Origin: a virus
Length of the DNA: 54,457 nt
Virus genome (UHGV): UHGV-0096558
Strand: one strand, 5' to 3'
Position numbers and translations under genes: made by a program. Under the pieces are notes generated by a model, which was not told the origin of the DNA, did not search any database, and saw only the letters and a list, made by a program, of their open reading frames with translations. Shown here piece after piece: positions 5,249 to 25,347 of the stretch (position 1 is the stretch's first letter; every line of letters begins with the position of its first letter).

Positions 5249-5257
5249 ATTGCCGCC

Positions 5258-5611: not shown

Positions 5612-5615
5612 TTTG

Positions 5616-5780: not shown

Positions 5781-5909
5781 CATGCACCTCCGCGCCATTT
5801 TGTTAACTATGCTTCCGTTTGAGTAAAATATACATATTGTAAAAACCGCGATCAATCCATTTTGGTATGATTTAGCGTGACGCAGATCACAAAATGACAA
5901 GGTGAGAAA

Positions 5910-6614: not shown

Positions 6615-6616
6615 TT

Positions 6617-7348: not shown

Positions 7349-7821
7349 ACGTTGATACGCCAGCGCAAGGACTTCGCTTATTGACTGCGCAGAATCAGGA
7401 ATTCAAAAAAGCGTTTTTAAACACACCATCACGATTACGGATTGCGGGAAAGGATTATAACGAAAAAACAGCGCCCGCTGCGGTTAATAGCAAATACCCG
7501 GACGGGACCACTGTAATTATTGCGCCAGTAGTGGAAGGTGGGATCGCTGGTATCGGTGTAATTGGCTGGATCATGATTGGTATTTCAGTAGTTAGCGTTG
7601 CGTTTTCCCTCTTTATGTCTCGCAACATGAAGGTAAAAACATCAGCAGAAAGCGCACAGGATAACACCATAACGAATAACACCTACACCAGCGTTGAAAA
7701 CAAGGTAGGCCAGGGTAGACCAGTGCCAATCCTGTTAGGTGAAATGAAAATAGGTTCGAATGTAGGATCGCTTGGTATCGACACAAGCAACAACAAAGAC
7801 GCTCTGGACGTTGTAAGTTAA
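7291..7821 (+). CDS. I: tail assembly protein I
   Basis: Lambda gpI-like; Gly-rich hydrophobic segment then ...ILLGEMKIGS...; overlaps K 3' end. Confidence 0.8.
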   Translation: MLKFRFTGNLRRYYGKVCLNVDTPAQGLRLLTAQNQEFKKAFLNTPSRLRIAGKDYNEKTAPAAVNSKYPDGTTVIIAPVVEGGIAGIGVIGWIMIGISVVSVAFSLFMSRNMKVKTSAESAQDNTITNNTYTSVENKVGQGRPVPILLGEMKIGSNVGSLGIDTSNNKDALDVVS

Positions 7822-7835
7822 TAAAGGGGGTTACT

Positions 7836-10800
7836 ATGGGCGGCGGTGGTGGTAAAGCAAAAACACCAGTTTTATTAAACGATAACTTGTATCATAAGCA
7901 GTTTTATCGCGTCCTGGATATCCTGTCAGAAGGGCCGATTTATGGCCCTGTCAATCAGGCGGCACCGTTAAACTGCGTAATGCTTAATGATACGCCTATA
8001 ACTGACACCGTGGGTAACGCAAGTATCCCCGGCGTTAGTATTGCGTGGCGTCCTGGTAGTCTCGACCAGTCTCCAATCAATGGATTTAACTCCATTGAAT
8101 CGACTGTAATGGTCAATGCACAGGTTAAGCACGATACGCCGATTATACGCACAGTATCAGACAGAAATGTCAATCGTGTACGTCTTAATATTGGCGTTGA
8201 TTCTCTGGTATCGAGCGACAACCAGGGGAACCAGTACGAAACATCCGTACATTTAGCTATAGATATTAAACCTTCATCATCATCGTCATGGACTATAGTT
8301 AAAGATGTAATTATCGGACCGGGTAAAATTAGCGGGGAATACCTTGAATCACACATCATTGATGCGCCGAGTGAGTACCCTTTCGATATTCGCGTTCGCA
8401 GAATTACGGCAGATAGCACCAGCGATCTACTTCAAAACGACACACGCTGGAATAGCTACAGCGAGATCATAGATGACAACCTGTCATATCCTCACACGGC
8501 GGTAGCTGGCTGTGTTATTGATCACGATCAGTATACTGATACACCGACCCGCGCTTATCATCTTCGCGGGCTGATTGTTGACGTGCCGGACAACTATAAC
8601 CCTGAAGCGCGCACGTATTCCGGTTTATGGCTTGGTGGATTTAAAAAGGCGTACACCAATAACCCTGCTTGGCTTTTCCGGTATTTGATTAAAAATGAAC
8701 GCTTTGGCCTTGCACGACAGGCTGGTTATATTGACGTTGATGACGGCGCTTTATACGTGCTTTCTCAATACTGCGACCAGTTGGTTGATGATGGCTACGG
8801 CGGCCTTGAGCCTCGCATGACGCTTAACGCTTACATCACAGAGCAAATGAGCGCCCGCGACTTACTTGATAATATAGCTGGCATGTTCCGTGGTATTGCG
8901 TTATGGGACGGGCAACGTCTTACAGTGATGATTGATGCGCCACAAGATCCGATTGCAACTATCACGAACGCAAATGTCGTAGATGGTGCATTCACCCGTT
9001 CGAGCCTTGCCCGCGCGGAGTGCTATAACGCCGTGATTGTATCCTGGACCGATCCGGGTAACGGTTGGGAACAGTCAAAAGAATACGTTTCTGACGATGA
9101 ACTAATCGCCCGCGACGGCTACAACGAAACCACACTGGAGGCGTTCGGGTGCACGTCTCGCGGACAGGCTTACCGCGCTGGTAAATGGCTAATCGAAACA
9201 GCAAAACGCGAGCCGTCGAAATTTACGTTTAAAATGGCCCGTGACGCCATTCACTTTACACCAGGTGATATCATTGAGATCCTCGACAATAACCGCGCGG
9301 GCGCTCGCTTAGGCGGTCGTATCGTGGCGAACAATGGCAAAGTGATAACGGTCGACAAGGTTGATTCTGAATATATCGCGGCTGGTGACACCATCAGCTT
9401 ACTTGATAGCGATGGTAAATTTAAAAAACACCAGATCACCGGAGTTAACGGAAACAATATTACCCTTGCTGCGGCCCCGGCATGGATTCGCAATGGCACT
9501 GTTTTTGCTGTATCGACTGAAGCAGCAAAACCCGTTTTATGTAGGATCACCAGCGTAGCAGAAACAGAAAATAACAGCGTATACACTATCGAAGCCGCAC
9601 AGCACGACCCTAACAAACAGGCCGTAGTTGATGAAGGCGCAGTCTTCGAAATCAACAACGACACGCTGAATCATTTCCGTGTGCCTAACATTGAAAACCT
9701 CAAGGTAATGAATGTTGGTTCCGAAACCGTTCAGTGCTCCGCGTCGTGGATGACGCAGACCACAACTCACCGTCTGACCTTTGAATTACGTGTTTATAAC
9801 GAAGACAGCAAAGTTGTCGCCAGTTATGAGACGACAGAATTCCGGTATGATTTTAATGGCCTGAATTGCGGTCAATACTCTTTAGGCGTTCGCGCCCGCA
9901 ATGATACCGGTATGAAAGGCGCGGAATCTATCGTTGATCTCGTTATTGGTGCACCTTCAAAACCAATTGGTGTTAACTGGATACCAGGCGTATTTCAGGC
10001 TACTGTGTACCCAATCAGCAAAACAACTCTGACCAGCGATACAAGCTATGAATTCTATTTTGCTGGCGAAACACAAATCACTAATCCGGCATTAGTCACC
10101 ACTAATGCACAATATACCGGACGTGGTTATCAGTGGACGTTCGGCGGAATGAACACGGGCCATACTTATTACGTTTATGTGCGCACGCGTAACGCTTTTG
10201 GTGTATCAGATTTCGTAGAGGCGTCAGGTAAACCAACAGAGGATTTCGATGAAATCAGCGATTACGTAACCAAAGACGTGATGAATTCTGACCAATTTAA
10301 AGGAATGGTTAGCGACATTAAAGATCTTGGCGACCGCACCGACCTTATCGAAAGCGCCACTGACGACCTTAAAACAGCCACTGATAATCTTACCAATATC
10401 ACAAACGGCCTAAGAACTGATACTGACGACCTTATTGCAGAAACAGGGTCAATAAAAGCTGACACAGATACGCTTAAAAAAGACACGGAAGATCTTTATA
10501 AAAAAGTTCAGGAAAACGCCGATGATATCGGACAGCATGAGGTAAGAATTGACTCATTAGAGGTATCAAGTGAAAAAACCGACAGCGAACTGGCGCAGGC
10601 AAAAGCAAGCCTACAAAACGCATCGCTTGCCCTTATTAATAACTCGCTTGCACAGACTAACACCCGCGTAACTCTTACCGCTCAGTACAAGAAAGGTAAA
10701 ACAGAGACGAAAGCGGAAATTGACCGTATTGACAACGTTATCGCTGAAGAGAAAAAAGCGACTGCGGAATCACTGGAAACCATCACGGCAGAGATGAACA

Positions 10801-12275
10801 CGATGGATACCAACCTGAAAGGTCAGATTTCCAATGTTCAGCGTGCAGTAGCTGACGAGGCGAGCGCCCGCGCTGAAGCTATTAGTGGTGTAAACGCATC
10901 GATCACCAACCTTGATAAGAAAACCGACGCCAACGTAAACCGCCTTGATCAAGCTATCGCTGACGAAACCAGCGCCCGGACTCAGGCCGTCAGTGACGTG
11001 AACGCAAGCATCACCACGCTGGACAAGAAAACTGATGCCAGTGTGAAACGACTTGATCAAGCAATCGCAGATGAAACAAGCGCCCGGACTCAGGCCGTCA
11101 GTGACGTGAATGCAAGCATCAGCACGCTTGATAACAAGGTGACAAGCAATGTGACCCGTATCGACAAAGCTATTGCAGATGAGACAAAGGCACGCACAGA
11201 CGCAATAAGCAGCCTTAACTCATCGCTTACCAGTACGATTAATTCGAAAGTATCTGAAGTATCAACAGCACTTTCTACGCATGAAACATCAAGCGCGGAA
11301 AAATTCAGCCAGATCTCTGCATCTTTCGAAGCGGTAAACTCAAGTATCACAGAATGGTCGCAGACCATGACAACGGCGGACGAGGCATTATCAACCAAAA
11401 TTGATCAGTTAACAGTAACCGTTAACGGGAACACAACGGCGATCGAGACAACATCGAAAGCGTTAACCGACTTCAAAGGTAACGTTGATGCGTCATATTC
11501 AATTAAGATTGCCACCGACAACAACGGCAGAAAATACGCAACAGGTATGTCGCTTGGCCTTACTGGTAGCGGTACTGACGTTCAATCGCAGTGTATTTTC
11601 CTTGTTGACCGCTTCGTGTTAATGACTGCCGCCAACGGCACATACCAGACGCCTTTCTATGTCACTAACGGCGCAATGTATGTGCGCGAAGCGTTTATTA
11701 AAGACGCATCGATCACGACTGCAAAAATAGCACAGCAGATTCAATCAACCAACTTTGCTTCCGGTTCCGCTGGGTGGATGATTAACAAAAACGGCAGCGC
11801 GCAATTTAATAACGTAACTGTAAGGGGGACCGTTTACGCAACATCCGGCGAGTTTTCTGGGACCGTTAAAGCTAAAGCATTTGAAGGTGGCATTAGTTCC
11901 GGTACGCAGGGAACAAGAAGTTCCAGCGGGACGATCACAATTAACGTAACCCCAGCAACCCCGAATAGTATGCTATTGCTTTTCGTTTCTGTATACACGG
12001 CTGGCGTGCGCACAGCAAGCGGCGACCATACCGTCACTCTCCATGCGGGAGGTCGTAGTTTTAACGTTCCTCCGTCTTATCTTGCAGGTAGCGGTGTAGC
12101 GTCAACTTACAGGTTCGATTCAACTATAATTATCCCGGTTACAGGGACCAATAAGAGGGCGGTTTCGATATACTTAAGCCAAGTGGGCCACGTATCATTA
12201 ATAAATACAGATATAAGACTTCTCGGCGCTGTATTACTAAACACCTCATTCTCATCAGGTACTTTTGATTTTTGA
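7836..12275 (+). CDS. J: host specificity protein J (central tail fibre / tip attachment), 1479 aa, with inserted coiled-coil repeat region
   Basis: N-terminal region similar to lambda gpJ over roughly 750 aa (e.g. DILSEGPIYGPV, NPAWLFRYL, EPRMTLNAYIT, GCTSRGQAYRAGKWLIE). Confidence 0.9.
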   Translation: MGGGGGKAKTPVLLNDNLYHKQFYRVLDILSEGPIYGPVNQAAPLNCVMLNDTPITDTVGNASIPGVSIAWRPGSLDQSPINGFNSIESTVMVNAQVKHDTPIIRTVSDRNVNRVRLNIGVDSLVSSDNQGNQYETSVHLAIDIKPSSSSSWTIVKDVIIGPGKISGEYLESHIIDAPSEYPFDIRVRRITADSTSDLLQNDTRWNSYSEIIDDNLSYPHTAVAGCVIDHDQYTDTPTRAYHLRGLIVDVPDNYNPEARTYSGLWLGGFKKAYTNNPAWLFRYLIKNERFGLARQAGYIDVDDGALYVLSQYCDQLVDDGYGGLEPRMTLNAYITEQMSARDLLDNIAGMFRGIALWDGQRLTVMIDAPQDPIATITNANVVDGAFTRSSLARAECYNAVIVSWTDPGNGWEQSKEYVSDDELIARDGYNETTLEAFGCTSRGQAYRAGKWLIETAKREPSKFTFKMARDAIHFTPGDIIEILDNNRAGARLGGRIVANNGKVITVDKVDSEYIAAGDTISLLDSDGKFKKHQITGVNGNNITLAAAPAWIRNGTVFAVSTEAAKPVLCRITSVAETENNSVYTIEAAQHDPNKQAVVDEGAVFEINNDTLNHFRVPNIENLKVMNVGSETVQCSASWMTQTTTHRLTFELRVYNEDSKVVASYETTEFRYDFNGLNCGQYSLGVRARNDTGMKGAESIVDLVIGAPSKPIGVNWIPGVFQATVYPISKTTLTSDTSYEFYFAGETQITNPALVTTNAQYTGRGYQWTFGGMNTGHTYYVYVRTRNAFGVSDFVEASGKPTEDFDEISDYVTKDVMNSDQFKGMVSDIKDLGDRTDLIESATDDLKTATDNLTNITNGLRTDTDDLIAETGSIKADTDTLKKDTEDLYKKVQENADDIGQHEVRIDSLEVSSEKTDSELAQAKASLQNASLALINNSLAQTNTRVTLTAQYKKGKTETKAEIDRIDNVIAEEKKATAESLETITAEMNTMDTNLKGQISNVQRAVADEASARAEAISGVNASITNLDKKTDANVNRLDQAIADETSARTQAVSDVNASITTLDKKTDASVKRLDQAIADETSARTQAVSDVNASISTLDNKVTSNVTRIDKAIADETKARTDAISSLNSSLTSTINSKVSEVSTALSTHETSSAEKFSQISASFEAVNSSITEWSQTMTTADEALSTKIDQLTVTVNGNTTAIETTSKALTDFKGNVDASYSIKIATDNNGRKYATGMSLGLTGSGTDVQSQCIFLVDRFVLMTAANGTYQTPFYVTNGAMYVREAFIKDASITTAKIAQQIQSTNFASGSAGWMINKNGSAQFNNVTVRGTVYATSGEFSGTVKAKAFEGGISSGTQGTRSSSGTITINVTPATPNSMLLLFVSVYTAGVRTASGDHTVTLHAGGRSFNVPPSYLAGSGVASTYRFDSTIIIPVTGTNKRAVSIYLSQVGHVSLINTDIRLLGAVLLNTSFSSGTFDF
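10833..11242 (+). repeat. in-frame tandem repeats inside J: two near-identical 108-bp units (10941-11048, 11049-11156) flanked by degenerate copies; exact 32-mer at 10970-11001 and 11078-11109
   Basis: Read directly; encodes repeated motif RLDQAIADETSARTQAVSDVNASIT.LDKKTDA. Confidence 0.7.
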
Positions 12276-12280
12276 TACCA

Positions 12281-12305
12281 GCCCCGCTTCGTGCGGGGTT
12301 TTTTT
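12281..12305 (+). terminator. rho-independent terminator (GCCCCGC / GCGGGG then T7)
   Basis: Immediately after J stop. Confidence 0.7.
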
Positions 12306-12388
12306 ATACGCATTGTAAACTCAAGTTCGTTCTTGTAATGACAAAACGTTAAAATGGTAACGTTAATTAACGAAATGGAGTCATTGCG

Positions 12389-15300
12389 ATGATTTATACA
12401 ACAGGCACAATTGCAATTAGCGGCAATACCTTAACTGGTGTTGGCACTAATTTTACAGCGCCGCTTTCCCTTATCCGTGTAGGCTGTACACTGATCGCCG
12501 TGGGAAACCCGGTGCAAATTTTCTCAATCACAGAGATTAAAAGCGCTACAGAGCTTTCCGTTTACCCTGCCGCAAATCCCGCAATCCCTGCCGGGACAGA
12601 ATTTAGCATCCTGCTTACAGACTCAATTTCCGTCGATGGTCTTGCTCAGGACGTAGCTGAAACACTGCGTTACTACCAGGGCAAGGAAACAGAGATCGCC
12701 GCAGCCGTCGAGTGGTGGAAAGATTTCGGCGGTGATGGTCAGATGGATCAGCTTCTTGCCAACATTCGCGAAGAAACAGCGAAATCAACCGCCAACGCTC
12801 AAAAAACAGAAGCTGACAAGAACACAACCGAAGGTTACAAGAATGCTGCGGCATCATCTGCAACAGCGGCAAAATCATCTCAGGATGCAGCAAAAGCCAG
12901 CGAAACATCAGCCAGCAACAGCAAAACAGCGGCGGCAACCAGCGAAACCAATGCGGCGAAATCAGCAGCCGATGCGCTTAATTATAGAAATCAAGCTCAA
13001 TCCATTGTTGGCAGCAACATTGGCTTAGGTGCATCGCCGCGTGATTGCCCTGACATTTCCGGCAATCCATCCGGTTATATTGGCTTTATGCGCATTATGG
13101 CTGGTGCGAAAGGTTTTCCATCAATCGCATCAGGTGAAAGCAGCCTCACAGGCTTTATTAGCGGAGTTGACGGAAGTCCGACATATGCAGGTATTTTCCA
13201 GGGCTGGGCCTCAAGATCGCTTTATACTTACCGTTGGAGTGAAGGTACAGGCCCGCAATGGACTCGACACGCAAGAAAAGACGAAGTAGATCGCATTTCT
13301 CAAATGAGTGGCGATCAGACGCGCATTTACGCTGGCAACGGTAAAACTTATTTAGAGGTTGGCAATGATCGTGCATGGGGTGTTTATAATAGCGAGACTG
13401 GTCAATGGAAACCGTTAGATCTTGCTCAAGGCGGTACGGCAGGACGTAACGCAGGACAAGCACGCACAAACCTTGAGGTTATGTATGAGAAAAAATCAGA
13501 TCTAAGTTCCACAGATATTAATACGCTTACTGGCGAGTATTCCGGTTTTTATTACCAGGGGTTAAACTCCAACGCTACGTCAGAGCGTGGCTATCCTGTA
13601 TCAAGTGCGGGCGCATTGCTTGTCATCAGAAACAATGCAAACGGTAACGCAGGATGCACGCAGCTTTATTTCCCTTACAATGCCACGACTGGCACATTTT
13701 ATATGCGCCAGTACATTATTATTTCCTCTACGACTGGCTGGGAGTGGACCGCATGGAAGAAATTTCAGTCTCTTGATTTTACTGATAGCCCGCAATTTAC
13801 AAACCTTAATCTTGTAAGATCTTCAGATGTAGCAACTACCGCAGGCGGTATTTTACAAAGCATCCTTAATGATGCATCAGGCGCACAAAGAGCGCGAGCG
13901 CGTTTTTATTCAGAATTCCGTGGCGATGGTAAATCATGGGCCACAATTCACCTACAGAATGGAGATAAAAACCAATACGCAGGATTAAGCGAAGACGGCG
14001 ACTTTACTTTAAATAGCGGTGATTTTATAGGTAGGCGTTTAAGATTAACAGCTAATTTTAATTATCCCGTAGAAATATCAAGCGCTCATCCTACCATCAG
14101 ATTCAACGAAACGGATCGGCCATCAAATACACCTTACTATAGCCTTATCTTTGATGGTGGTAACTGGCGTATTCAGAAAGACGGATATGACGGGACGAAA
14201 ACAAGCTATTCAATGAGCTATAACTATGCAAGGGATGAAATAGAAGTACCTAACCTGAAAGTCAATGCAATTGCAGTACCTACAAACCTTGAACAAACTA
14301 AAACAAATATGCAAATCCCGTTTGCAGGTATTGCGCATTGGGTTGATTACAACGCTCCTACTGGTGCTGAAGCTGGTAAATATTACCCTGTAATTGTCAG
14401 CCATCCTTCATACTATAACGGCGATTTCCTTGTTGAAGTTGCAATGAGAACTAAGTCAATATCTGGCAGTGAAGAGCCTAACTGTAACGCAATTCACTTA
14501 TGGTTGCGTGATGGTGGCTGGTCAGATATGGGTGCGGCTGTATTTGGTCATTATTTCTGTTACGCAAACAATGAAAACGCGATACTTTGCGTGCGCGGTA
14601 CTGATAAAGGTCAGTATCCACATAACGCAATCTATGTTCGCGGTGACGCTTTCCCTATTCGTCTTGCCGTCACGGTTGGCTGTACTGTAACAATACCTAC
14701 AGCAGACTGGAAACCTTCAACAGCGGGCGATAGCCCGACTTATAAATGGGGTATCACTAATTCCTCTGATGGTATTGATTTAGATACTTACGGCATTAGC
14801 AATAACTTACTTGATTTCACATCGAGTGCAACAGGGTTTTATTGCACTGATACATACCGCAATAAATATGGTGATTCTTATCAGGTTATACAATCAAACG
14901 GAACTATACAGCCAGCTAACGGAGTTGCAACATATTTAAATCAAGACTGGAACGCACAACAATCAGACGGAGTAAACAAGTTTAAACCGATTGCTGGTCA
15001 AACGAATACGCCGGAAAATAATGTAGTTTATGGCGGCTTTCATGTTGGCTTTAGCGGTAACTACGCTACTCAATTCGCCGGACGTAATTCAAAATTCTAC
15101 GCCAGAAGTTTTGAGGCCGGAGTAGATAAAGGCTGGTGTCAACTTGCTACGCTTAACGCATCTTCGCAAAGGTGGACTGGATACCAACAATTCAAATCGA
15201 CGGAGTTTTTCGCTGATACTTACACAAGAAAAGTAAGTTTAGCCGTCGCAAATTCAGCGGTAAGAAATGGCGAGCTTTATTTGTGGGGTGCAGAAAGCCG

Positions 15301-15856
15301 TCCGACTGTATTTGAGTACAAGATAAAAGATCCAGACACAAACGCGTCACTTTCATGGGTTTTTTACGCGCAGCAAAACACGGATGATTCTTGTCAATTT
15401 CAGGTTAACGGTGCTGTAAACTGCGTAACAGTAAACCAGTCATCAGACCGAGACTTGAAAGACAATATTCAGGTTATAGGTGATGCTACTGAAGCTATCC
15501 GTAAAATGAACGGGTACACCTACACGCTTAAGGAAAATGGCCTGCCTTACGCTGGCGTTATCGCTCAGGAGGTCATGGAGGCACTACCGGAAGCGGTAGG
15601 ATCGTTTACTCATTACGGTGAAGCATTGCAAGGCCCGACCATTGACGGCAACGAGCTACGCGAAGAAACGCGCTATCTTAATGTTGACTATGCGGCGGTG
15701 ACTGGTTTACTTGTCCAGGTGGCACGCGAAACAGATAACCGCGTCACCGAACTGGAAGAGGAAAACGTCAGCTTACGTGCTAACATTGCCGTCATGGATG
15801 AGCGGATCACAAAACTTGAAGCGCTTGTCAGGAAGTTAACCGGAAGCGAAGAATAA
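12389..15856 (+). CDS. tail fibre protein, 1155 aa, with C-terminal S74-type intramolecular chaperone (autoproteolytic) domain
   Basis: Ala/Ser/Thr-rich repeat region near N-terminus resembling side tail fibre proteins; C-terminal segment ...SSDRDLKDNIQVIGDATEAIRKMNGYTYTLKENG... plus terminal coiled coil typical of endosialidase-type chaperone domains. Confidence 0.8.
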   Translation: MIYTTGTIAISGNTLTGVGTNFTAPLSLIRVGCTLIAVGNPVQIFSITEIKSATELSVYPAANPAIPAGTEFSILLTDSISVDGLAQDVAETLRYYQGKETEIAAAVEWWKDFGGDGQMDQLLANIREETAKSTANAQKTEADKNTTEGYKNAAASSATAAKSSQDAAKASETSASNSKTAAATSETNAAKSAADALNYRNQAQSIVGSNIGLGASPRDCPDISGNPSGYIGFMRIMAGAKGFPSIASGESSLTGFISGVDGSPTYAGIFQGWASRSLYTYRWSEGTGPQWTRHARKDEVDRISQMSGDQTRIYAGNGKTYLEVGNDRAWGVYNSETGQWKPLDLAQGGTAGRNAGQARTNLEVMYEKKSDLSSTDINTLTGEYSGFYYQGLNSNATSERGYPVSSAGALLVIRNNANGNAGCTQLYFPYNATTGTFYMRQYIIISSTTGWEWTAWKKFQSLDFTDSPQFTNLNLVRSSDVATTAGGILQSILNDASGAQRARARFYSEFRGDGKSWATIHLQNGDKNQYAGLSEDGDFTLNSGDFIGRRLRLTANFNYPVEISSAHPTIRFNETDRPSNTPYYSLIFDGGNWRIQKDGYDGTKTSYSMSYNYARDEIEVPNLKVNAIAVPTNLEQTKTNMQIPFAGIAHWVDYNAPTGAEAGKYYPVIVSHPSYYNGDFLVEVAMRTKSISGSEEPNCNAIHLWLRDGGWSDMGAAVFGHYFCYANNENAILCVRGTDKGQYPHNAIYVRGDAFPIRLAVTVGCTVTIPTADWKPSTAGDSPTYKWGITNSSDGIDLDTYGISNNLLDFTSSATGFYCTDTYRNKYGDSYQVIQSNGTIQPANGVATYLNQDWNAQQSDGVNKFKPIAGQTNTPENNVVYGGFHVGFSGNYATQFAGRNSKFYARSFEAGVDKGWCQLATLNASSQRWTGYQQFKSTEFFADTYTRKVSLAVANSAVRNGELYLWGAESRPTVFEYKIKDPDTNASLSWVFYAQQNTDDSCQFQVNGAVNCVTVNQSSDRDLKDNIQVIGDATEAIRKMNGYTYTLKENGLPYAGVIAQEVMEALPEAVGSFTHYGEALQGPTIDGNELREETRYLNVDYAAVTGLLVQVARETDNRVTELEEENVSLRANIAVMDERITKLEALVRKLTGSEE

Positions 15857-15885
15857 GAGGTGATGTGCGAAGAACATTGCCGCGC

Positions 15886-15916
15886 GAAACGAGGCTAACG
15901 CCTCGTTTCTTTTTGC
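15886..15916 (+). terminator. rho-independent terminator (AAACGAGGC / GCCTCGTTT then T-run)
   Basis: After tail fibre gene. Confidence 0.65.
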
Positions 15917-16182
15917 GTACCATTGTGTGTACCATATTATCTTAAGGTTAAATGAGATATGAATAAAATAATGATTTATATATCGTTTTTGCCACTTTGC
16001 ATAATGTCTCTTTCTAATGCTACATACCGCGCACAAGCGTAAACATACGCAAGCAAAATCACCCCTAACACCATGAATTTAGTAGATTTACTTGTTTTCG
16101 CTGTAAACAAGCGCGCTTTTGCGTTATATTGCGTAAACCATGATTTGTGTACCAGGTTGTGCACCAAATAAGGGGGGCGATT

Positions 16183-17403
16183 ATGGCGTTATCTGACACT
16201 AAGTTAAGAAGCATCCACGGTAAAAGTTATGATGGTCCGGTCGAGATCCCGGATGGCGGCGGTCTGTCAGTAAGGGTAAGCCCGAAAGGCGTAATTACGT
16301 TTCAGTATCGCTACAGGTATGACGGGAAGCCTAAAAGAATGAAGCTAGGCAACTATGGCATAATGACGCTAAAGGAGGCCAGGCTAGCGGTAATTGAGTG
16401 CAAGGCGATATTAGCAGACGGCAAAGATCCAGGACTTGCTAAGAAGCAGCGCATTGACGAGGCGAGGGCGAGAGCAACCGTTAGCGATATCGTGAACAAC
16501 TATCTGAATAAACAGACGACCAGGGAAATTAAGGGATACAAAGAGATCAAGCAAAACTTACAAAAGCACATAATCAAGAGGTATGGCGATTTTATTGTGG
16601 ATGACATTAACGCTAGGGCGTGGGAGGCAATATTCTCAGAGATAACGAAAGCGGGCCATCCGGTACAGGCTGGCGCGATGTTGCGCCGCATGAAATCCAT
16701 TGTCGCTATGGCGCAAAGGAAAGGGATAGTAAAAGACAACGAGATCCGCTTGTTGCGAGTGGAAGACGTTGGCAAACCGCCGCGCAAGATCGACAGATAT
16801 TTATCGGGCGAGGAAGTAGGGGAATTCTGGCGTTTTACGGCTGGCGATTTTATGTCTAAGGCCAATATGACATTCTTCAGACTACTGCTATTAACAGGAT
16901 GCAGGACGGTAGAATTGAGGCTAGCAAAGCGTGAACATTTTGATCTCAATAACAGGGTATGGAATATCCCTGCGGAACTATCAAAAAACAAAAAGCGGTT
17001 TACGCGCGGCCTGTCAACGTTAAGCGTAGAGCTATTAAGCATGATGTTTGATTGCCACGGCTTCAACATAGTTTTCCCTGCGGTATTGTCGCTGGATGGT
17101 AAACCAATGGATAAAGCTGTGTGCACAAGACTAGCGACAAGGCTTAGTAATGAAATTGGATTTAAGGCGGGTTTTACTGCGCATGATTTGCGCCGGACGT
17201 GCCGCACGCATTTAGCGGCATTAGGCGTGACCGCCCAGGTAGCCGAAAAAATGTTGGGCCATACCCTGGGCGGAGTATTAGGAGTTTATGACAGATATGA
17301 TTATGTAGAAGAACAGAAAGACGCTGCGGAATTATGGGCTAATTACGTTTTATCAGTATCAGAAAGCAAGCCTACTGACTTAAAGAACTGCATTACATCT
17401 TGA
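16183..17403 (+). CDS. int: tyrosine integrase, P4/CP4-57 type
   Basis: ATG at 16183 with RBS AAGGGGGG; N-terminal arm-binding region (GGGLSVRVSPKGVITFQYRYRYDGKPKRMKLG) and C-terminal HDLRRT...H..G...Y catalytic motifs. Confidence 0.9.
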   Translation: MALSDTKLRSIHGKSYDGPVEIPDGGGLSVRVSPKGVITFQYRYRYDGKPKRMKLGNYGIMTLKEARLAVIECKAILADGKDPGLAKKQRIDEARARATVSDIVNNYLNKQTTREIKGYKEIKQNLQKHIIKRYGDFIVDDINARAWEAIFSEITKAGHPVQAGAMLRRMKSIVAMAQRKGIVKDNEIRLLRVEDVGKPPRKIDRYLSGEEVGEFWRFTAGDFMSKANMTFFRLLLLTGCRTVELRLAKREHFDLNNRVWNIPAELSKNKKRFTRGLSTLSVELLSMMFDCHGFNIVFPAVLSLDGKPMDKAVCTRLATRLSNEIGFKAGFTAHDLRRTCRTHLAALGVTAQVAEKMLGHTLGGVLGVYDRYDYVEEQKDAAELWANYVLSVSESKPTDLKNCITS

Positions 17404-17576
17404 TAACGATATACAGGGCGCGACGTAGTTGATAATTCGTGAAGCGGTTCAGGAAATGGTGTACCTGCCGCTTCCCATTTCATTTTCCATACTCTGAAAG
17501 TTGTCCTACTTATTCCGCCGAGCATTTCCCTGATCCGTGCCGTGGTCAATAATAATGTGGCTGTTTTATTCATCAC
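17343..17576 (-). CDS. AlpA/Xis-like helix-turn-helix regulator or excisionase
   Basis: ...ARIREMLGGISRTTFRVW... motif; start overlaps stop of upstream gene (ATGA); 3' end overlaps int 3' end antisense by about 60 bp. Confidence 0.55.
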   Translation of the reverse strand: MMNKTATLLLTTARIREMLGGISRTTFRVWKMKWEAAGTPFPEPLHELSTTSRPVYRYQDVMQFFKSVGLLSDTDKT

Positions 17577-19052: not shown

Positions 19053-19259
19053 TTACACAATCCGCATTGTGTTTCGTAATTCACCGCGCAACGCCCGTAA
19101 TGCATCGCGCATTGGCACAAAAACCCGGTTAAATTTTACGTGTTTATATTTCCGCATCAGTGGCGGTGTATACACCTTTGCGTCGTATACTTCCCACGGA
19201 TAATAAACGCGCGTATCGTCAACAAACGTTTCAACTGAATAAAAGATTACCCGTCTCAT
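19053..19259 (-). CDS. hypothetical protein, 68 aa
   Basis: ORF track; in operon. Confidence 0.5.
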   Translation of the reverse strand: MRRVIFYSVETFVDDTRVYYPWEVYDAKVYTPPLMRKYKHVKFNRVFVPMRDALRALRGELRNTMRIV

Positions 19260-19849
19260 AATTCCAACCCCGTTTCACCGTTAAGTTTTTCGATCTCAAA
19301 TACTGGTTTATCCGGTAACAGGCCGTTATTTTTCCGGTATTCATTCAGGCGGCTGTCAAAATCAAACGCGAGATCATTAGCGTGACCGAAGCGCCCAGGT
19401 TTAAACAGTGAGTAAAAATTAAGGCCGTGCTTATTGGTGTCTATGCAAAGCGTTTCATCCAGTACCATTAAACGCAGCGTGCGCGACAGGTAATTCCACG
19501 GAATACCAGTTTCCGCGCTAATGTCACGCATACGCTTTTTAACGCTGTAGTCGCTAAATAACGCCGCCACACGATCGCGCCGTTGCGCATACAAATATTT
19601 AATTCGATACCCCAACAAGCGGCGGCGCGGTCCAAAATATGTATATACACGCTCAACAATACCAGTGTCGATTAAGTGTTTAATTGTCTCAGGTAAGCAT
19701 CCAGCTTCGTCATATTCCGCTGATAATCCTGTTTTCTGGCGTAACTGGTGCATTGTGTCGATGCCATCAAGTTCAAGGATATTGATAATTTTTGCTTCAA
19801 GTTCAATGCTCATTGTTTTTCGCCTCGTTTTAAGCACAAAAACAGCCAC
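19256..19849 (-). CDS. hypothetical protein, 185-197 aa (alternative start at 19812, MSIELEAKIINIL...)
   Basis: ORF track; downstream of helicase gene in same operon. Confidence 0.55.
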   Translation of the reverse strand: MAVFVLKTRRKTMSIELEAKIINILELDGIDTMHQLRQKTGLSAEYDEAGCLPETIKHLIDTGIVERVYTYFGPRRRLLGYRIKYLYAQRRDRVAALFSDYSVKKRMRDISAETGIPWNYLSRTLRLMVLDETLCIDTNKHGLNFYSLFKPGRFGHANDLAFDFDSRLNEYRKNNGLLPDKPVFEIEKLNGETGLEL

Positions 19850-19892: not shown

Positions 19893-21308
19893 TTAAAAGG
19901 ATGCGTTATTCTGGTTGTTTCGTTGGTTAAATCGACTTGTGCGATGATTCATAGACTGAATACATGCAGACGCTGCGCGGGCCTGGTCGCAAGGGAGGAT
20001 ATTGCCGTTGTCGTCAAATCGCTGGTAAACAGTCCCCGTTTTCCCGTGACGGTTTTTCGAAACAATGATCTCCATATATTCGCGGGCAACAGACTGTTCA
20101 TCATAGTACCCGTCGCGGTAGACCATGATGATCCGGTCCGCGTCTTGTTCAAGATTACCGGAATCGCGCAGATCAGAATTGTTCGGGCGCTTGTTCGGTC
20201 GTTCCTCAACGCGGCGGGATAATTGCGCCAGCGCCGCCACTGGCACGCGCAACTCTTTCGCCATCATTTTCAATGACCACGACAATTGCCCTACGGCGAG
20301 ATCATGACGTTCGGCCTTAGCCAGCTTCATTAACCCGATGTAGTCAATCATTACCATCCCCAGGTTAGGATGGTCCTGTTTCATCCGTTCGACGGTGGCG
20401 CGTATTTCCTCGACCGTTAACTGCGATGCGTCAACAATCCACACGTCGAGATCGGCAAGGGCACTCATTCCTTGTGCGACGTGCGCCCAACCTTCGTCAT
20501 CCAGTTTTACCGGATTACGTAGGCAATCCGTTGATAAGTTCCCAGCGCCAGCGATAGCACGTTCAGTCATCTGATCGAGCGACATTTCAAGCGTGAACAG
20601 CAAAACGCCGACCCGCTGACCTTCGCCGCCAGGGTATGGACGTTCAGCCGCCGCGCGGGCAATTGCCAACGCCAACGCCGATTTACCAGACCCCGGACGT
20701 CCGGCGATAAGCACCAGATCAGTAGCGTTAATGCCGCCTAACATTTCGTCGAGTGGGTCAATCCCTGTTTTGATGTTGTCAGAGTTCACGCCACACTCCA
20801 TGCGTTTACTTAACACTTCCGTGTATTCCTGGACCGCATCGCGCAACAGCACCGGGATAATTTGATCTTTTGTTACCTTTAATTTTGAATACCGGGAATC
20901 AAAATCTTTCATCGTCTCCCTGACGACTTCAAGCGTCCCTGTTTCCAGCTTGTAACGAATGTCTTCCATTAGTTCCAGCATTTGCCGCCGCTGGTGTTCT
21001 TCCTGTAGTAGTTGCGCATATCCTTTCAGGTTGGCAGCAGAAGGACACGATCGCGCCGTTTGCATCAGCGGTACAAAATTTTCGTTGCCAATCTCATCAC
21101 CAACCAGCAAGGCGTCGATAAGATTTCTGTTTCTGGCTTGCGCCCGGATAATTTCAAAAGCCCGCTTATATAGCGGAATAGTGAACACTTCAGGATCAAG
21201 CGTAGCGAGAACATCTTGCGCGTTAGGAGTAAGCCCACCTAACAGCAGGCCACCGATAACCGCTGATTCTCTTTCTTGCCGCAATGAGTTTACTTGTTCG
21301 GTTATCAT
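19893..21308 (-). CDS. replicative DNA helicase, DnaB-like
   Basis: Walker A GRPGSGKS, DnaB-type motifs, 471 aa. Confidence 0.9.
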   Translation of the reverse strand: MITEQVNSLRQERESAVIGGLLLGGLTPNAQDVLATLDPEVFTIPLYKRAFEIIRAQARNRNLIDALLVGDEIGNENFVPLMQTARSCPSAANLKGYAQLLQEEHQRRQMLELMEDIRYKLETGTLEVVRETMKDFDSRYSKLKVTKDQIIPVLLRDAVQEYTEVLSKRMECGVNSDNIKTGIDPLDEMLGGINATDLVLIAGRPGSGKSALALAIARAAAERPYPGGEGQRVGVLLFTLEMSLDQMTERAIAGAGNLSTDCLRNPVKLDDEGWAHVAQGMSALADLDVWIVDASQLTVEEIRATVERMKQDHPNLGMVMIDYIGLMKLAKAERHDLAVGQLSWSLKMMAKELRVPVAALAQLSRRVEERPNKRPNNSDLRDSGNLEQDADRIIMVYRDGYYDEQSVAREYMEIIVSKNRHGKTGTVYQRFDDNGNILPCDQARAASACIQSMNHRTSRFNQRNNQNNASF

Positions 21309-21326: not shown

Positions 21327-22469
21327 TTACAAAATGGAATATTCAGGGTAATAAACAAAGCGCCCGATTTCCCCATGATCAGGACTGTAAATTATTACCG
21401 CAGCCAGCCGCCGCGACCGCCAGCCGCCATTCGTTGAATAAGCGTCTTTGCCAGCTAACGTGCCGTGATACTCAACAACGCCTAACGATGATTCAATCAG
21501 CCGTTGGTGGTGCCAGTGTCCGCAATGGGCGTAAACCGCCGCCGACTTGCCGAAATCCTCCCTCCAGTCAGAGACGCAGGCAGACAACAAATTTTCTGGT
21601 TTTTTGATAGTATGACCGTGATGATAGGCAAGGAATGTTTTGCCGTACTGTGTGTGGTGGACGATAGCAGGGGACACGTCAACCGTCACACGCGGTTCAT
21701 CTTCGTAAAAAGCCGCCAGCGCCGCACGTAGCCAAATCATCCCTGATTGGTCGTGGTTGCCGGATAATACCTGGATCTCGACGTCCTTATGATTTAGCAA
21801 CATCTTTCCGACCGCCCGCCGGACCGAACGGATCGCCACGTAAACAAGTTTTGCGTAGCGTGAATCACAATCTAAGACGTGGTTGCTTGATGGCGTCACT
21901 GGTAATAGCCCGTCAGTGTGAAGAATATCACCGCCTAACAACAAAACAGCCTTTTCAGACATTGGCGCAGCGCCTACCGCGTAGTCGAAGAAGTCATTTA
22001 GCACGCGTTCAGCGATCCCGGTGTCGTAGCTCTCACCGCATTCAGCTTTATGAGCAAGCGCCCCGATATGCAGATCGAATACCGGATAAAGGGCCAGGCT
22101 TTTTTGAAAATCAATTTCCGGCACTGGCACGGCCTCCGCGCGGGGTATTTCTTCCGTGAAGGCGTCACAAGCAGATTGCATTAGCATTTCCATTTCATCG
22201 CGGTCACGGGCTGTTTTAATCCAGCGCATAATCACATTGCCATCCTTATCGACGAGCAATGACTCAGCATTGACGCCAAAACCCGGTGCGCGGCGCGTGG
22301 ATATCAAACCGCGTTTCGCCAACCGTGCGCCCAGGCGTTCGACGTTGCGTTTTGCCATGCCATATTTTTCTGCGATCTGTTTATACGTCAGACCGTTATT
22401 ATGTTCAGCGATTAACTGTTCATCGCTGATCTTTCTTTGACACATAATGTTATATCCTCCGGTATACAT
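21327..22469 (-). CDS. fusion protein: N-terminal helix-turn-helix plus C-terminal calcineurin-like metallophosphoesterase; in the helicase-loader position
   Basis: HTH-like LTYKQIAEKYGMAKRNVERL; phosphoesterase-like motifs VFDLHIGA, GGDILH, GNHD, HCGHWHH; preceded by motif TATACAAAATGTATA and RBS GGAGG. Confidence 0.65.
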   Translation of the reverse strand: MYTGGYNIMCQRKISDEQLIAEHNNGLTYKQIAEKYGMAKRNVERLGARLAKRGLISTRRAPGFGVNAESLLVDKDGNVIMRWIKTARDRDEMEMLMQSACDAFTEEIPRAEAVPVPEIDFQKSLALYPVFDLHIGALAHKAECGESYDTGIAERVLNDFFDYAVGAAPMSEKAVLLLGGDILHTDGLLPVTPSSNHVLDCDSRYAKLVYVAIRSVRRAVGKMLLNHKDVEIQVLSGNHDQSGMIWLRAALAAFYEDEPRVTVDVSPAIVHHTQYGKTFLAYHHGHTIKKPENLLSACVSDWREDFGKSAAVYAHCGHWHHQRLIESSLGVVEYHGTLAGKDAYSTNGGWRSRRLAAVIIYSPDHGEIGRFVYYPEYSIL

Positions 22470-22500
22470 TTTGTATATTCATTGACAGCAAACAATCTCT

Positions 22501-23016
22501 TTATATGCTTCTTCTACCATGTCGAATACTTCCGGCCTGTAATAGAAAAAACTCATTACTACCATCAAATTTTACAGGGAAGTTAATTTTATAATTGCTA
22601 AAAGCCTTATGCATCGTGCTTTCTAATTCATGGATATTTTCAGTTGGCCCTTCTAACGTTTTCACGATATGCAAATCAGGAATTCTAACACCTGCTTTAT
22701 GTGCGCTTTTTAATATTTCATTTCTTCGCTCGTTCTCCTTAACGCTTACACCAATTTTCATTTGTGTAGGCACTTCCAGATCGTCAGTCATGATGTAAAG
22801 TTTACCGCGCTCATGACGAAGAAAGCCGTATTTTGCGCATTTTGGACAGCCGTCGCCGCGCTTAAGGTTGTGGGGTGTACACATCCTTTTATGGCCACAA
22901 ACTCTGCAGCGGCATAATACTTTTGTTTTGCTATTAATAATTTTCCCCAGCACTTCAACATCAGGATTAACTTTCGCAATAGCGGCAACATGTTCCTCAT
23001 GTGTTAACTTACACAT
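22501..23016 (-). CDS. T5orf172 / GIY-YIG-like domain protein with N-terminal zinc ribbon (CRCRVCGH...CPKC)
   Basis: Cys4 cluster and ...LYIMTDD...KIGVS...ENERRNEI... pattern. Confidence 0.45.
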   Translation of the reverse strand: MCKLTHEEHVAAIAKVNPDVEVLGKIINSKTKVLCRCRVCGHKRMCTPHNLKRGDGCPKCAKYGFLRHERGKLYIMTDDLEVPTQMKIGVSVKENERRNEILKSAHKAGVRIPDLHIVKTLEGPTENIHELESTMHKAFSNYKINFPVKFDGSNEFFLLQAGSIRHGRRSI

Positions 23017-23156
23017 CGATCCAACTCCTTAAAACACCTCAGACGCGCTACAACGCAAAATTCCACCGCGTAACCCATTTGCACAGGTTGCAGTGTCTTA
23101 TTGCGTCAGAGGCGCTATCAGGTGGCTAATTTTCGATTTACAGACTGGTAGGTAGG

Positions 23157-23258
23157 TTATGGATTGACTAGAAGGAACAAACCGCCGAACAAGGCGACGT
23201 TAACTGCGATAGCCGCAGCGATGGCAAAAGCCAGGGCGAACATGCGTTTACCGTCCAT
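23157..23258 (-). CDS. possible small hydrophobic peptide, 33 aa (MDGKRMFALAFAIAAAIAVNVALFGGLFLLVNP)
   Basis: Manual translation; GAGAGG 9 nt upstream; single predicted TM helix. Confidence 0.3.
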   Translation of the reverse strand: MDGKRMFALAFAIAAAIAVNVALFGGLFLLVNP

Positions 23259-23391: not shown

Positions 23392-24390
23392 TCAAAGAGC
23401 GCCCGCGCGAGTATCACGTAGCGTTTTTGGTTTAAGCAGGAAATCAAGTGTCGCAGTGAAGCCATTGCCGAAGTAAAAATCTGAAGCCGTGTTTTTGAAC
23501 GTTTCGAAGTAGGCGACAAAGCCGTTAATGCTTTTGTCTTTCAGGTAGTCAGTGAACGCATAGATCTTGCGTTCAAGATCCCGATCCAGTTCGGCAGGTG
23601 GTAACAGGCCGTCAAACGTGCTGTTAAATGCTTCCACCACGTCGGCAGCGTTTACAGTAGATGATAGCTTGCGCCATTGTTCAGCATCAGCCAAATACCC
23701 ATCGAATTTAGTTACCCGGCAAATGTTAACAGGCTTAGGCACTCCACCACGGCTACGCCATTGCGTCAAAGCCCATTCGATTACTAATGTGATCTCATCC
23801 TCCGTGTATGCCTTACGTGTTTTTGTTTCTGTCAGTAGTTCGATAAATGGCTTAGCATCACGACATTTGCATCCTGCTTTTTCGTTGTAGAAGGCTAAGC
23901 AACGGTAAGCAGCCGCGCTTATCTGAAAGTCACCGTCCTGATTGACATGTTTTTCTCCCAGGGGGATATAAGGGGGTATATCTTTATTTAGATTCTCTTT
24001 ACTGGTTATATATGACTGATTAGGGTTGCTCTCTGCCACTACCCCAGGTTGCTTTGTGCCACTACCCTGGTTGCTCTCTGCCACTACCCCCGGTTGCTTT
24101 GTGCCACTACCTGACAGTGAAGGTAAAACGATTACATAGAAATTGCTCGTTTGTTCTTTCCCGCCGATTAAATAGCGAGGCTGTTTTAGTAACAAGCCTT
24201 TTTTGCAAAGCGCCTCAATTGCTCGCATTGCTGTACTTTTATTTATTTCGCATTGCTTCGCTATGTGCTGGTAAGAAGGGTAACACTCGCCGTTATCGTT
24301 AGCGTTATCAGCCAACTTTAACAGTACAAGTTTGTGCATTGGATTACCGACCTCAGTATGAAACACTTCGACCATTAGCCGCATACTCAT
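23392..24390 (-). CDS. replication initiator, lambda O-like (winged-helix N-terminus), contains iterons
   Basis: N-terminal HKLVLLKLADNANDNGECYPSYQHIAKQCEINKSTAMRAIEALCKKGLL; strong RBS AGGAGG; internal 22-bp direct repeats. Confidence 0.7.
   Translation of the reverse strand: MSMRLMVEVFHTEVGNPMHKLVLLKLADNANDNGECYPSYQHIAKQCEINKSTAMRAIEALCKKGLLLKQPRYLIGGKEQTSNFYVIVLPSLSGSGTKQPGVVAESNQGSGTKQPGVVAESNPNQSYITSKENLNKDIPPYIPLGEKHVNQDGDFQISAAAYRCLAFYNEKAGCKCRDAKPFIELLTETKTRKAYTEDEITLVIEWALTQWRSRGGVPKPVNICRVTKFDGYLADAEQWRKLSSTVNAADVVEAFNSTFDGLLPPAELDRDLERKIYAFTDYLKDKSINGFVAYFETFKNTASDFYFGNGFTATLDFLLKPKTLRDTRAGAL
24024..24113. repeat. four tandem 22-bp iteron-like repeats (GGTTGCTCTCTGCCACTACCCC / GGTTGCTTTGTGCCACTACCCT alternating) inside the initiator gene; candidate origin of replication
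   Basis: Read directly; encodes duplicated peptide SGSGTKQPGVVAESN. Confidence 0.6.
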
Positions 24391-24699
24391 AAATATTGGC
24401 CTCCTATGGTTAAAAATGAACGCGCGGGCGGGTATCCCATTAGCATTAGGTAGCAGTGATTGACCGCTTAACAGATCCCGCCGTTGCGTGATATTTGTTT
24501 TTCGCTTCGCAGCGACACCTAGTTTTTAAAGAGCATAAGGTATGCGCCTTTTTGTGCTATTCCGTTATCTTTTTTCTTGCGTCTTTGCAACTATGGCCTT
24601 ACCTTGTCTGCAAGTTTACAGAATGGCGTTTTTAGGTCAAGACTTGAAAAATACATTTTGTGACTTGTATCAAACTTTTTGAGGTTATAGGGTAGCGAC

Positions 24700-25347
24700 A
24701 TGAAAACAAAATGGTATGACTTAGCAAAGCAGCTCATGCGAGCGCAAGGTATGAGCCAAGATTCACTCGCGGATCTCATGGGGATAACTAAAGGCGGCCT
24801 GTCACACTGGCTTAACGGTCGCCGCGAGCCAAATCTTGAAGATATTGCGCGGATTATGCGGGCGCTTGGTCGTCGGCAATTCACTGTTACACATGATGGA
24901 ATGGTCATTGATGATTCTGTTTCTAACACGTTACCGGGAGCGCCGCAGCGTGATTTAGGTAGTTACCCGGTTGTTGACTGGAAGGACACAGTAAACAATA
25001 TGGATGATACAAGGCTATCAACATTACCACACGTTACGACTAGCGTTATTTGTTCAGATGATAGTTACTGGCTGGTTGCCAAAGGTGAATCAATGAACGC
25101 GCCGCAGGGGTTGAGCATCCCGGCGGGGACGATGATACTTGTTGACCCGCACGCGCCAGCTATTGACGGCAAACTGGTTATAGCCCAGCTTGAGGAAGGG
25201 CAGATACCGACGTTTAAACAGTTGATTATTGATGGAGGTCAAAGGCTTTTACGTTCGCTCAATCCGCTGTATCCGCCAATCCCTATGAATCCAGAATCAA
25301 AAATTATAGGCGTGGTGGTTGATGCGAAGATCGTAAACCTGCCATAA
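24700..25347 (+). CDS. cI: CI-like repressor (HTH plus S24 LexA-type autopeptidase domain)
   Basis: N-terminal HTH (SQDSLADLMGITKGGLSHWLNG); C-terminal ...LVAKGESM... and ...VVVDAKIVNL; divergent from replication operon. Confidence 0.85.
   Translation: MKTKWYDLAKQLMRAQGMSQDSLADLMGITKGGLSHWLNGRREPNLEDIARIMRALGRRQFTVTHDGMVIDDSVSNTLPGAPQRDLGSYPVVDWKDTVNNMDDTRLSTLPHVTTSVICSDDSYWLVAKGESMNAPQGLSIPAGTMILVDPHAPAIDGKLVIAQLEEGQIPTFKQLIIDGGQRLLRSLNPLYPPIPMNPESKIIGVVVDAKIVNLP

Follow-up and report, generated by a model that had tools for sequence, protein, structure and literature searches.

What is a metal-dependent phosphoesterase fused to a helix-turn-helix (HTH) doing in the replication operon of a temperate phage? 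The question is raised by the virus genome UHGV-0096558, the whole stretch of which, 54,457 nucleotides (nt) in length, is hereafter called the window. Between its genes for an O-like replication initiator and a DnaB-type (DnaB-like) replicative helicase lie two open reading frames (ORFs). One, listed with 380 amino acids (aa) at 21327..22469 on the minus strand, encodes an HTH–metallophosphoesterase protein designated here as X; the other encodes a 171-aa zinc-ribbon protein. A sequence-only reading of this region had located both ORFs correctly and quoted four motifs of X (VFDLHIGA, GGDILH, GNHD, and HCGHWHH), all of which are present; its domain calls held, whereas its proposals that the two genes form a pair, that X occupies a loader slot, and that it is nearest to the lambda phosphatase did not. 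Our analysis places X in a very common phage gene family and in the nuclease-like branch of its superfamily. We give about an even chance to the reading, built largely on analogy, that X, anchored to DNA through its HTH, would process DNA during phage replication and recombination as a stand-alone nuclease.

As a single sequence, X returned no phosphoesterase match in Pfam, NCBIfam, or PDB, and alignments and a structural model were required to recognize its catalytic domain. The Pfam model Metallophos left X itself unmatched at E ≤ 0.01 and matched 12 of 54 relatives. Conservation was assessed in an alignment of 54 sequences sharing 29–57% identity with X. All seven metal ligands (D, H, D, N, H, H, H) are retained, as is the catalytic histidine of GNHD, D132, H134, D181, N238, H239, H284, and H320 being invariant and H318 conserved in at least 90% of the sequences; a loss of metal ligands on careful alignment, which the sequence-only reading had named as the observation that would undo its assignment, was thus not found. 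After motif II, the same alignment revealed a family-specific consensus, VTPxSGHxLDxDxR, and the corresponding stretch of X, VTPSSNHVLDCDSRY, is a candidate substrate-binding loop. The AlphaFold2 model of X (predicted local distance difference test, pLDDT, 91.3) has the beta-sandwich fold of phosphoesterases. Structure searches with X ranked highest the small subunit of archaeal DNA polymerase D, DP1 (score 16.1), followed by Thermotoga maritima Mre11 (15.0), Staphylococcus aureus SbcD (14.8), MJ0936 (14.3), LpxH (13.6), and Pyrococcus furiosus Mre11 (13.4), with protein phosphatase PP5 at about 9. When a profile of the catalytic domain was compared with PDB, T. maritima Mre11/SbcD provided the sole matches below E 0.1 (E 0.011–0.03); the best of these, to T. 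maritima Mre11 at E 0.011, spans motifs I–II only and aligns GGDILH of X to GDLLH. Weaker matches (E 0.4–1.3) comprised a Pseudomonas putida nuclease of the metallophosphoesterase type, P. furiosus Mre11, and an unrelated protoporphyrinogen oxidase. Because structure and profile searches both favour DP1/Mre11/SbcD and place PPP-type phosphatases far lower, X falls within the nuclease-like branch of the superfamily and outside that of the lambda nin-region phosphatase, which had been regarded as its nearest familiar relative.

The N-terminal part of X consists of a tri-helical HTH followed by a linker module. In X alone the HTH is weakly detected (HTH_IclR at E 0.003 and 17.6 bits, against a Pfam cut-off of 22, as well as a weak Rrf2 match). 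Its recognition comes from the relatives of X, which match Sigma70_r4_2 (1.5e-9), GerE (2.4e-8), HTH_1, and similar HTH models, and from the structural model; the family profile also matched the GerE structure 1fse at E 0.012. The HTH is present across the family, and no other part of the protein varies as much. Longer relatives (424–479 aa) were checked for other N-terminal domains, and these contained further HTH variants or nothing.

Translation of X probably begins at M9 (ATG at 22445), as judged from the sequence context, which would give a protein of 372 aa: a GGAGG lies 8 nt upstream of this codon and most close relatives are 372 aa long. X matches almost the full length of phrog_704, annotated as "DNA repair exonuclease" (E 1.6e-137, residues 12–376 against profile positions 2–387 of 390); members of this family are also annotated as "putative phosphoesterase", both names coming from annotation only. 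Database searches revealed 4,325 representative clusters (50% identity) at E ≤ 1e-3, including 905 at E ≤ 1e-30, with almost all proteins having 370–420 aa and nearly all clusters the same architecture as X. By tblastn, 2,044 of 50,697 phage records (ca. 4%) were seen to contain the family, most of them from virulent siphoviruses that infect Escherichia, Klebsiella, Salmonella, and Vibrio; the lineages concerned include Drexlerviridae, Dhillonvirus, Jerseyvirus, Jedunavirus, Gorganvirus, Casjensviridae, and N4-like, Flavobacterium, and Campylobacter phages. The architecture of X, which had been taken as unusual, is therefore not so, since the family ranks among the commonest in phages. PADLOC gave no match for X. 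At the protein level, X of this temperate mEpimmI-type phage is 57–66% identical to its versions in virulent T1-like phages (Hanrivervirus and Webervirus proteins; e.g., record L006, 6004–7134). Beyond X, megablast detected no similarity between T1-like phages and positions 1–25000 of the window. Since X is similar while the other sequence has no megablast similarity, this points to horizontal exchange of X, as a single gene, between mEpimmI-type and T1-like phages.

The gene neighbourhood of X was compared across 11 other phage lineages, and no fixed partner gene was found. In T1-like phages, X follows genes for a helicase, a VRR-NUC protein, and Dam, and directly precedes the holin, endolysin, and spanin genes; an exonuclease-holin-endolysin-spanin module was described in 508 of 522 Drexlerviridae in a pangenome study (PMC13164509). 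X lies between the lysis genes and TerS/TerL in Dhillonvirus, after the lysis genes in one Casjensviridae phage, before the endolysin gene in Vibrio phages, and at the end of the primase operon, before the terminase gene, in Jedunavirus. It forms a small antisense unit among tail genes in Jerseyvirus and is found among nucleotide-metabolism and head genes in Gorganvirus, at the end of a Dam-containing early operon in one Aeromonas phage, after the dCTP deaminase and thymidylate synthase genes in one N4-like phage, and as the first gene of the record in one Flavobacterium phage. X therefore stands beside DnaB in the mEp021 group only, and neither a DnaB helicase nor an initiator gene adjoins it in the 11 other lineages. 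Recurrently, X is in, or ends, an early or middle DNA-metabolism cluster whose other genes encode a helicase, VRR-NUC, Dam, a primase, or thymidylate synthase, so that the common thread is an early/middle DNA-metabolism gene that is often the last before the late genes. With such variable neighbours, both a conserved partner of X and its linkage to the helicase were rejected, and the loader slot beside the helicase is a position that is not conserved outside the mEp021 group.

The 171-aa gene has a history of its own. Its product was confirmed to combine a zinc ribbon with a T5orf172 (GIY-YIG-clan) domain: it passes the Pfam cut-offs of T5orf172 (PF10544; 25.9 bits against 20, residues 73–166) and MUG113 (23.9 against 22.3), and its treble-clef zinc ribbon, of the DUF4379/CapR type, is sub-threshold in Pfam. 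By eye, LYIM, KIGVS, ERR, E132, and N154-E155 are candidates for the Tyr/Arg/Glu/Asn catalytic constellation of GIY-YIG nucleases. In PADLOC, this protein gave a weak match to PDC-S57 only (E 8e-5). The 171-aa protein is 75% identical to mEp013_12 and to the C-terminal module of mEp021_12 (record L003, 6108–7595), which has six tandem zinc-ribbon modules in contrast to the single one found here. The mEp021_12 copies have a period of ca. 190 bp and 75–79% DNA identity to the single copy of the window; the number of copies ranges from one, here and in mEp013, through an intermediate 247-aa form in mEp515 to six in mEp021, a striking expansion.

Comparison with MagusPhagus, which is collinear with the first 25 kb of the window, delimits a 559-bp cassette made of a ribosome-binding site (RBS) and the 171-aa gene. 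The slot between the initiator gene and X (slot A) is empty in MagusPhagus and mEp010 and carries a 178-aa homologue in mEp013, the 247-aa protein in mEp515, and a 495-aa, six-module version in mEp021. A prophage matching the initiator–X region was found in 35 of 5,426 complete E. coli genomes, and among the 30 E. coli prophages listed, slot A is either empty or occupied by a zinc-ribbon protein or by an Ant, Rha, KilAC, or BRO-family gene. Slot A is a cargo hotspot (window 22484–23042; E. coli prophages H104–H120, with zinc-ribbon/T5orf172, Ant, Rha, KilAC, and BRO cargo), and the Ant/Rha/KilAC/BRO/T5orf172 domain set is known to shuffle among the "regulatory" accessory proteins of phages. 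On the other side of X, the slot preceding DnaB (slot B) contains HNH/homing-endonuclease genes in mEp021, mEp010, and mEp515 (records L003, 4451–4954; L012, 1716–2306; and L013, 2951–3505, respectively) and is empty, with a gap of 18 bp, in the window, mEp013, and MagusPhagus. Two mobile-gene slots, independent of each other, thus lie on either side of X.

X and the 171-aa gene are not a functional pair, because the cassette is a clean indel relative to MagusPhagus, because slot A is empty or filled with other cargo in E. coli prophages, and because the HNH genes occupy a separate slot B. The proposal of a pair or module also conflicts with the absence of the cassette from mEp010, and the 171-aa gene was never found beside X in the 11 other lineages sampled. 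From these comparisons, the 171-aa gene appears as an independent mobile accessory gene, slightly decayed, in a hypervariable intergenic slot, and its predicted class is homing-endonuclease-like or Bro/KilA. Otherwise collinear genomes differ in whether this gene is present at one precise intergenic site, the pattern expected of homing endonuclease genes, but the non-nuclease cargo of slot A (Ant/Rha/KilAC/BRO) weakens the homing reading. A single additional T, relative to mEp013 and mEp021, in a run of T residues near its 3' end replaces the last 21 residues by 14 unrelated ones and could be either decay or a sequencing error.

In the mechanism that we propose for X, the LuxR/sigma-4-type HTH and the beta-hairpin linker would tether an intact two-metal domain of the Mre11/SbcD/DP1 kind to DNA. 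X, the initiator, and the DnaB helicase of the phage would be expressed together from the early leftward operon, and X would cut or trim DNA in phage replication and recombination, candidate substrates being ends, hairpins, flaps, and blocked termini. It would act as a self-contained early/middle DNA-metabolism gene, neither as a helicase loader nor as a protein phosphatase. Both DNA as the substrate and a role in replication and recombination are suggested by analogy with the cluster A phosphoesterase of mycobacteriophages. This enzyme was reported to be needed for DNA replication of the phage (Savinov et al. 2012, as summarized in PMC11795197), and one of its versions, A10ZJ24 gp48, is an early-expressed phosphodiesterase that acts as a DNA nuclease in vitro and in vivo and is needed against host defences (PMC12287305).

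Several points weigh against the DNA-processing nuclease. At the sequence level the similarity to Mre11 is borderline (E about 0.01), and neither the capping domain of Mre11 nor its Rad50-binding region is recognizable in X. The neighbours of X are the T5orf172 and DnaB genes, and no gene resembling those for structural maintenance of chromosomes (SMC) proteins, such as a Rad50/SbcC partner, is annotated in the first 50 of the 54.4 kb of MagusPhagus. Lacking a capping domain, a Rad50-binding region, and an annotated SbcC/Rad50 gene, X is not a bona fide Mre11/SbcD. In several lineages, X adjoins lysis or terminase genes, not replication genes. Direct homology between X and Bxb1 gp47 was rejected (hhalign probability 7.8%), which makes gp47 an analogue at the superfamily level only, and the substrates of phage phosphoesterases vary, D29 gp66 being reported to act on monoesters, diesters, and cyclic AMP (cAMP) (PMC12287305). 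Finally, the literature on the X family gave annotation-level mentions only, and no biochemical or genetic study was found. A more ambitious version of the DNA-processing nuclease seems quite improbable to us: X would be an unrecognized core replication factor, a sequence- or structure-directed nuclease operating alongside the helicase of the phage and the polymerase of the host at the origin or fork, kept from virulent T1-like to temperate mEpimmI phages and functionally convergent with Bxb1 gp47. Its possible tasks would include nicking or processing that starts replication or switches its mode, and the editing or trimming of 3' ends.

The nuclease might also be directed at the host. As an early enzyme degrading the bacterial chromosome, in the manner of A10ZJ24 gp48, X would shut down host genes, including those for defence, and/or supply nucleotides. 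In vitro, linear DNA, plasmids, and genomic DNA are all broken down by the A10ZJ24 protein, a toxic enzyme needed against host defences (PMC12287305). X shares its superfamily fold with an intact active site, is a core gene in virulent Drexlerviridae, and is self-contained with variable neighbours. This alternative is nevertheless unlikely: the kinship of X to gp48 and gp47 is distant, an HTH of a sequence-reading type is unexpected in a bulk DNase, and there is no PADLOC or anti-defence signal. Moreover, the early replication operon of this temperate phage, to which X belongs, would also be on during the establishment of lysogeny, when damage to the chromosome would presumably be costly. The HTH, which is of the LuxR/GerE/sigma-70 region-4 type seen in transcription factors, speaks for another alternative, a bifunctional regulator-enzyme comparable to BirA, NadR, or NrtR, binding phage or host promoters while the phosphoesterase binds or hydrolyses a small nucleotide, such as a cyclic nucleotide monophosphate (cNMP), diadenosine tetraphosphate (Ap4A), an alarmone, or an immune signal, thereby coupling nucleotide level to expression or lysis timing. 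Small-molecule phosphodiesterases are among the close fold neighbours of X, and D29 gp66 is reported to hydrolyse cAMP. In lambda, the place before the lysis genes is occupied by Q. In 508 of 522 Drexlerviridae genomes, the lysis cassette is immediately preceded by X (PMC13164509); X also adjoins late genes in Dhillonvirus, Vibrio phages, and Jedunavirus, but not late promoters in Jerseyvirus, Gorganvirus, and N4-like phages. Since the best structural and the near-significant sequence matches are DNA nucleases and motif II is of the Mre11 type, we regard such a regulator as rather unlikely. In the phage group of X, a Q-like antiterminator is already found near the late genes (MagusPhagus annotation) and X belongs to the replication operon, distant from the lysis genes; for these two reasons, the narrower idea of a Q-like late-gene regulator, drawn from the position of X before the T1-like lysis genes, was demoted to a minor rival.

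The location of X had also suggested a substitute for a helicase loader that would link the phage DnaB to the O-like initiator at the origin, and whose phosphoesterase fold would be mainly a scaffold. X does lie between initiator and helicase genes in all seven mEp021-group phages of the database, and is separated from DnaB here by 18 bp. Yet the interval separating X from DnaB tolerates homing-endonuclease genes in mEp021, mEp010, and mEp515, the active site is strictly conserved, unlike that of scaffold B-subunits, and in the 11 other lineages X is away from DnaB helicase and initiator genes. Searches of Pfam, PHROGs, and NCBIfam gave no match to lambda P, to AAA+ loaders of the DnaC/DnaI type, or to DnaD-type loaders, and no homologue is known as a loader; homologues shown to be conventional loaders were what the sequence-only reading had named as refuting its proposal. 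Phages that own a DnaB-type helicase, such as P22, in which genes 18 and 12 pair an initiator with such a helicase, need no loader at that position. With neither a loader profile match nor a conserved helicase linkage, the loader reading has little in its favour and is very improbable. Even harder to credit is a Ser/Thr/Tyr protein phosphatase like the lambda nin-region enzyme, to which an HTH would have been added. X and this enzyme are both members of the broad calcineurin-like superfamily, and the motifs GNHD and GHxH occur in X, but the PPP signatures GDxHG, GDxVDRG, and GNHE are absent, their places being taken by DLHIG, GDILH, and GNHD, and no PPP chain appeared in either profile search of PDB.

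The window is related to the Nus-dependent "mEpimmI" (mEp021-group) temperate coliphages, its replication region being 86–88% identical to those of mEp013, mEp554, mEp044, and mEp010 and 95% identical to that of MagusPhagus; X and the 171-aa gene are not discussed in the paper describing this phage group. Its leftward operon comprises, in this order, the O-like initiator gene, the 171-aa ORF, X, the DnaB-type helicase gene, a MarR/Ren-like ORF, and NinB, with the integrase gene last (Table 1).

Table 1. Coordinates of X, the 171-aa gene, and neighbouring features in the window
Feature	Position	Strand	Remarks
X ORF	21327..22469	(-)	380 aa listed; phrog_704 full-length
Tri-helical HTH of X, aa 16-52	22314..22424	(-)	LuxR/GerE/sigma-70 region-4-like; modelled helices 16-24, 29-36, 40-52
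Linker module of X, aa 61-117	22119..22289	(-)	long beta-hairpin 64-88 (family motif KGxSTLY...QWVK), then helix 90-105
Catalytic domain of X, aa 118-380	21330..22118	(-)	metallophosphoesterase, calcineurin-like/Mre11-like
Motif I, VFDLHIGA, aa 130-137	22059..22082	(-)	D132, H134 invariant
Motif II, GGDILH, aa 179-184	21918..21935	(-)	D181 invariant; H184 in at least 90%; Mre11-type GDxxH
Family-specific motif, VTPSSNHVLDCDSRY	21855..21899	(-)	T192, R204 invariant; L199, D200, D202 in at least 90%
Motif III, GNHD, aa 237-240	21750..21761	(-)	N238, H239 invariant; D240 in at least 90%
Motif IV, HHGH, aa 283-286	21612..21623	(-)	H284, G285 invariant
Motif V, HCGHWHH, aa 315-321	21507..21527	(-)	G317, H320 invariant; H318 in at least 90%
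171-aa zinc-ribbon + T5orf172 (GIY-YIG-clan) ORF	22501..23016	(-)	Pfam; phrog_681 "endonuclease", E 1.8e-30
CxxC...CxxC treble-clef zinc ribbon, aa 35-60	22837..22914	(-)	one module
559-bp cassette (RBS + 171-aa gene)	22484..23042		about 14 bp between the same flanks in MagusPhagus
T6 run with one additional T relative to mEp013 and mEp021	22546..22551	(-)	tail LLQAGSIRHGRRSI instead of YYRPEVFDMVEEAYKEIVCCQ
O-like replication initiator	23392..24390	(-)	Pfam HTH_36, E 1.2e-14; PHROG replication-initiation families
DnaB-type replicative helicase	19893..21308	(-)	DnaB_C, E 1.6e-75; start 18 bp downstream of X
Tyrosine integrase	16147..17403	opposite to leftward operon	ORF call; mEp013 annotation
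cI-type repressor	24700..25347	divergent from leftward operon

Several further observations were made around these genes. Directly 3' of DnaB, a 197-aa ORF (19256–19849, minus strand) that is kept in every mEp021-group phage examined has weak PHROG matches to a MarR-family regulator (E 7e-8) and a Ren-like exclusion protein (E 2e-4), and no match in Pfam and NCBIfam searches. Inside the O-like gene, an iteron-like array (24001–24111) consists of ca. 4 copies of GGTTGC(T/C)(C/T)T(C/G)TGCCACTACC at a spacing of ca. 22–23 bp and codes for a repeated GSGTKQPGVVAESN peptide, resembling the in-gene origin of lambda O. Immediately 5' of the initiator gene is a promoter-like site, TTGACC-16-TAAACT (24640–24613, minus strand). 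In mEp013 and mEp021, an 81-aa HTH (MarR-like) protein is encoded upstream of the initiator on a segment of ca. 260 bp (mEp013 7497–7760) that is missing from positions 24391–24699 of the window; MagusPhagus has a different 85-aa gene at this position, and no ORF of at least 50 aa lies wholly inside the interval between cI and the initiator gene in the window. Between the initiator gene and the T5orf172 cassette is a strongly hydrophobic 33-aa ORF, MDGKRMFALAFAIAAAIAVNVALFGGLFLLVNP (23157–23258, minus strand), with a hairpin and T-run (23198–23181) within its 3' end; an annotated ORF is found at the matching position in mEp013, mEp010, and mEp515.

At the integrase end, a 77-aa ORF (17343–17576, minus strand) overlaps the 3' end of the integrase gene and has, by eye, the look of an AlpA/Xis-type excisionase (…TTARIREMLGGISRTTFRVWK…PFPEP…RPVYRYQDVMQFF). 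The tail and tail-fibre genes (1–16146) lead directly into the integrase gene (16147–17403), and alignment with the mEp records matches the window to their right end and its integrase side to their left end. Since the two align to opposite ends of these records, the window resembles a phage genome that is circularly permuted or unintegrated, and not a prophage with host flanks. Scans of the whole window for tRNA genes and Rfam families were empty.

X and the 171-aa gene are thus both members of catalogued phage families, in a locus that is itself ordinary, and their apparent pairing results by accident from a mobile-gene slot. What is of interest is the family of X, and not this particular locus: the family is abundant, with a presence in ca. 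4% of phage records, and its active site is strictly conserved. The comparable phosphoesterase that has been studied, Bxb1 gp47/A10ZJ24 gp48, is needed by the phage both to replicate its DNA and to overcome host defences. Once assigned, the function of X would annotate thousands of genes, and it bears on whether a dedicated step of DNA processing is common to those small siphoviruses that rely on the polymerase of the host.

Among known systems, the lambda Ser/Thr protein phosphatase has only the superfamily in common with X and a much lower structural rank. With Mre11/SbcD of T. maritima, P. furiosus, E. coli, and S. aureus, X shares the order of motifs I–V, with DxHxG, GDxxH, GNHD, and GHxH aligned; in contrast to these proteins, X carries an N-terminal HTH and has no annotated Rad50/SbcC partner. 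Archaeal DP1, a 3'-5' proofreading exonuclease of DNA polymerase D, is 13% identical to X, which has neither the oligonucleotide/oligosaccharide-binding (OB)-fold domain nor a DP2 partner and whose phage operon encodes no polymerase. Like X, the cluster A phosphoesterase of mycobacteriophages (Bxb1 gp47, L5 gp54, and A10ZJ24 gp48) is a stand-alone calcineurin-like protein encoded among replication genes, that of Bxb1 lying between the DNA Pol I and the primase/DnaB-like helicase genes. Unlike X, it has about 255 aa and no N-terminal HTH, and Bxb1 gp47 is in addition a recombination directionality factor, the cofactor of a serine integrase, whereas the window encodes a tyrosine integrase. The closest counterparts of X are the phrog_704 proteins of Drexlerviridae, Dhillonvirus, Jerseyvirus, Jedunavirus, Vibrio, and other phages, which have the same succession of HTH, beta-hairpin linker, and phosphoesterase domain and the same invariant residues; in T1-like phages their gene is placed before the lysis cassette, whereas X is found here between the initiator and DnaB genes.

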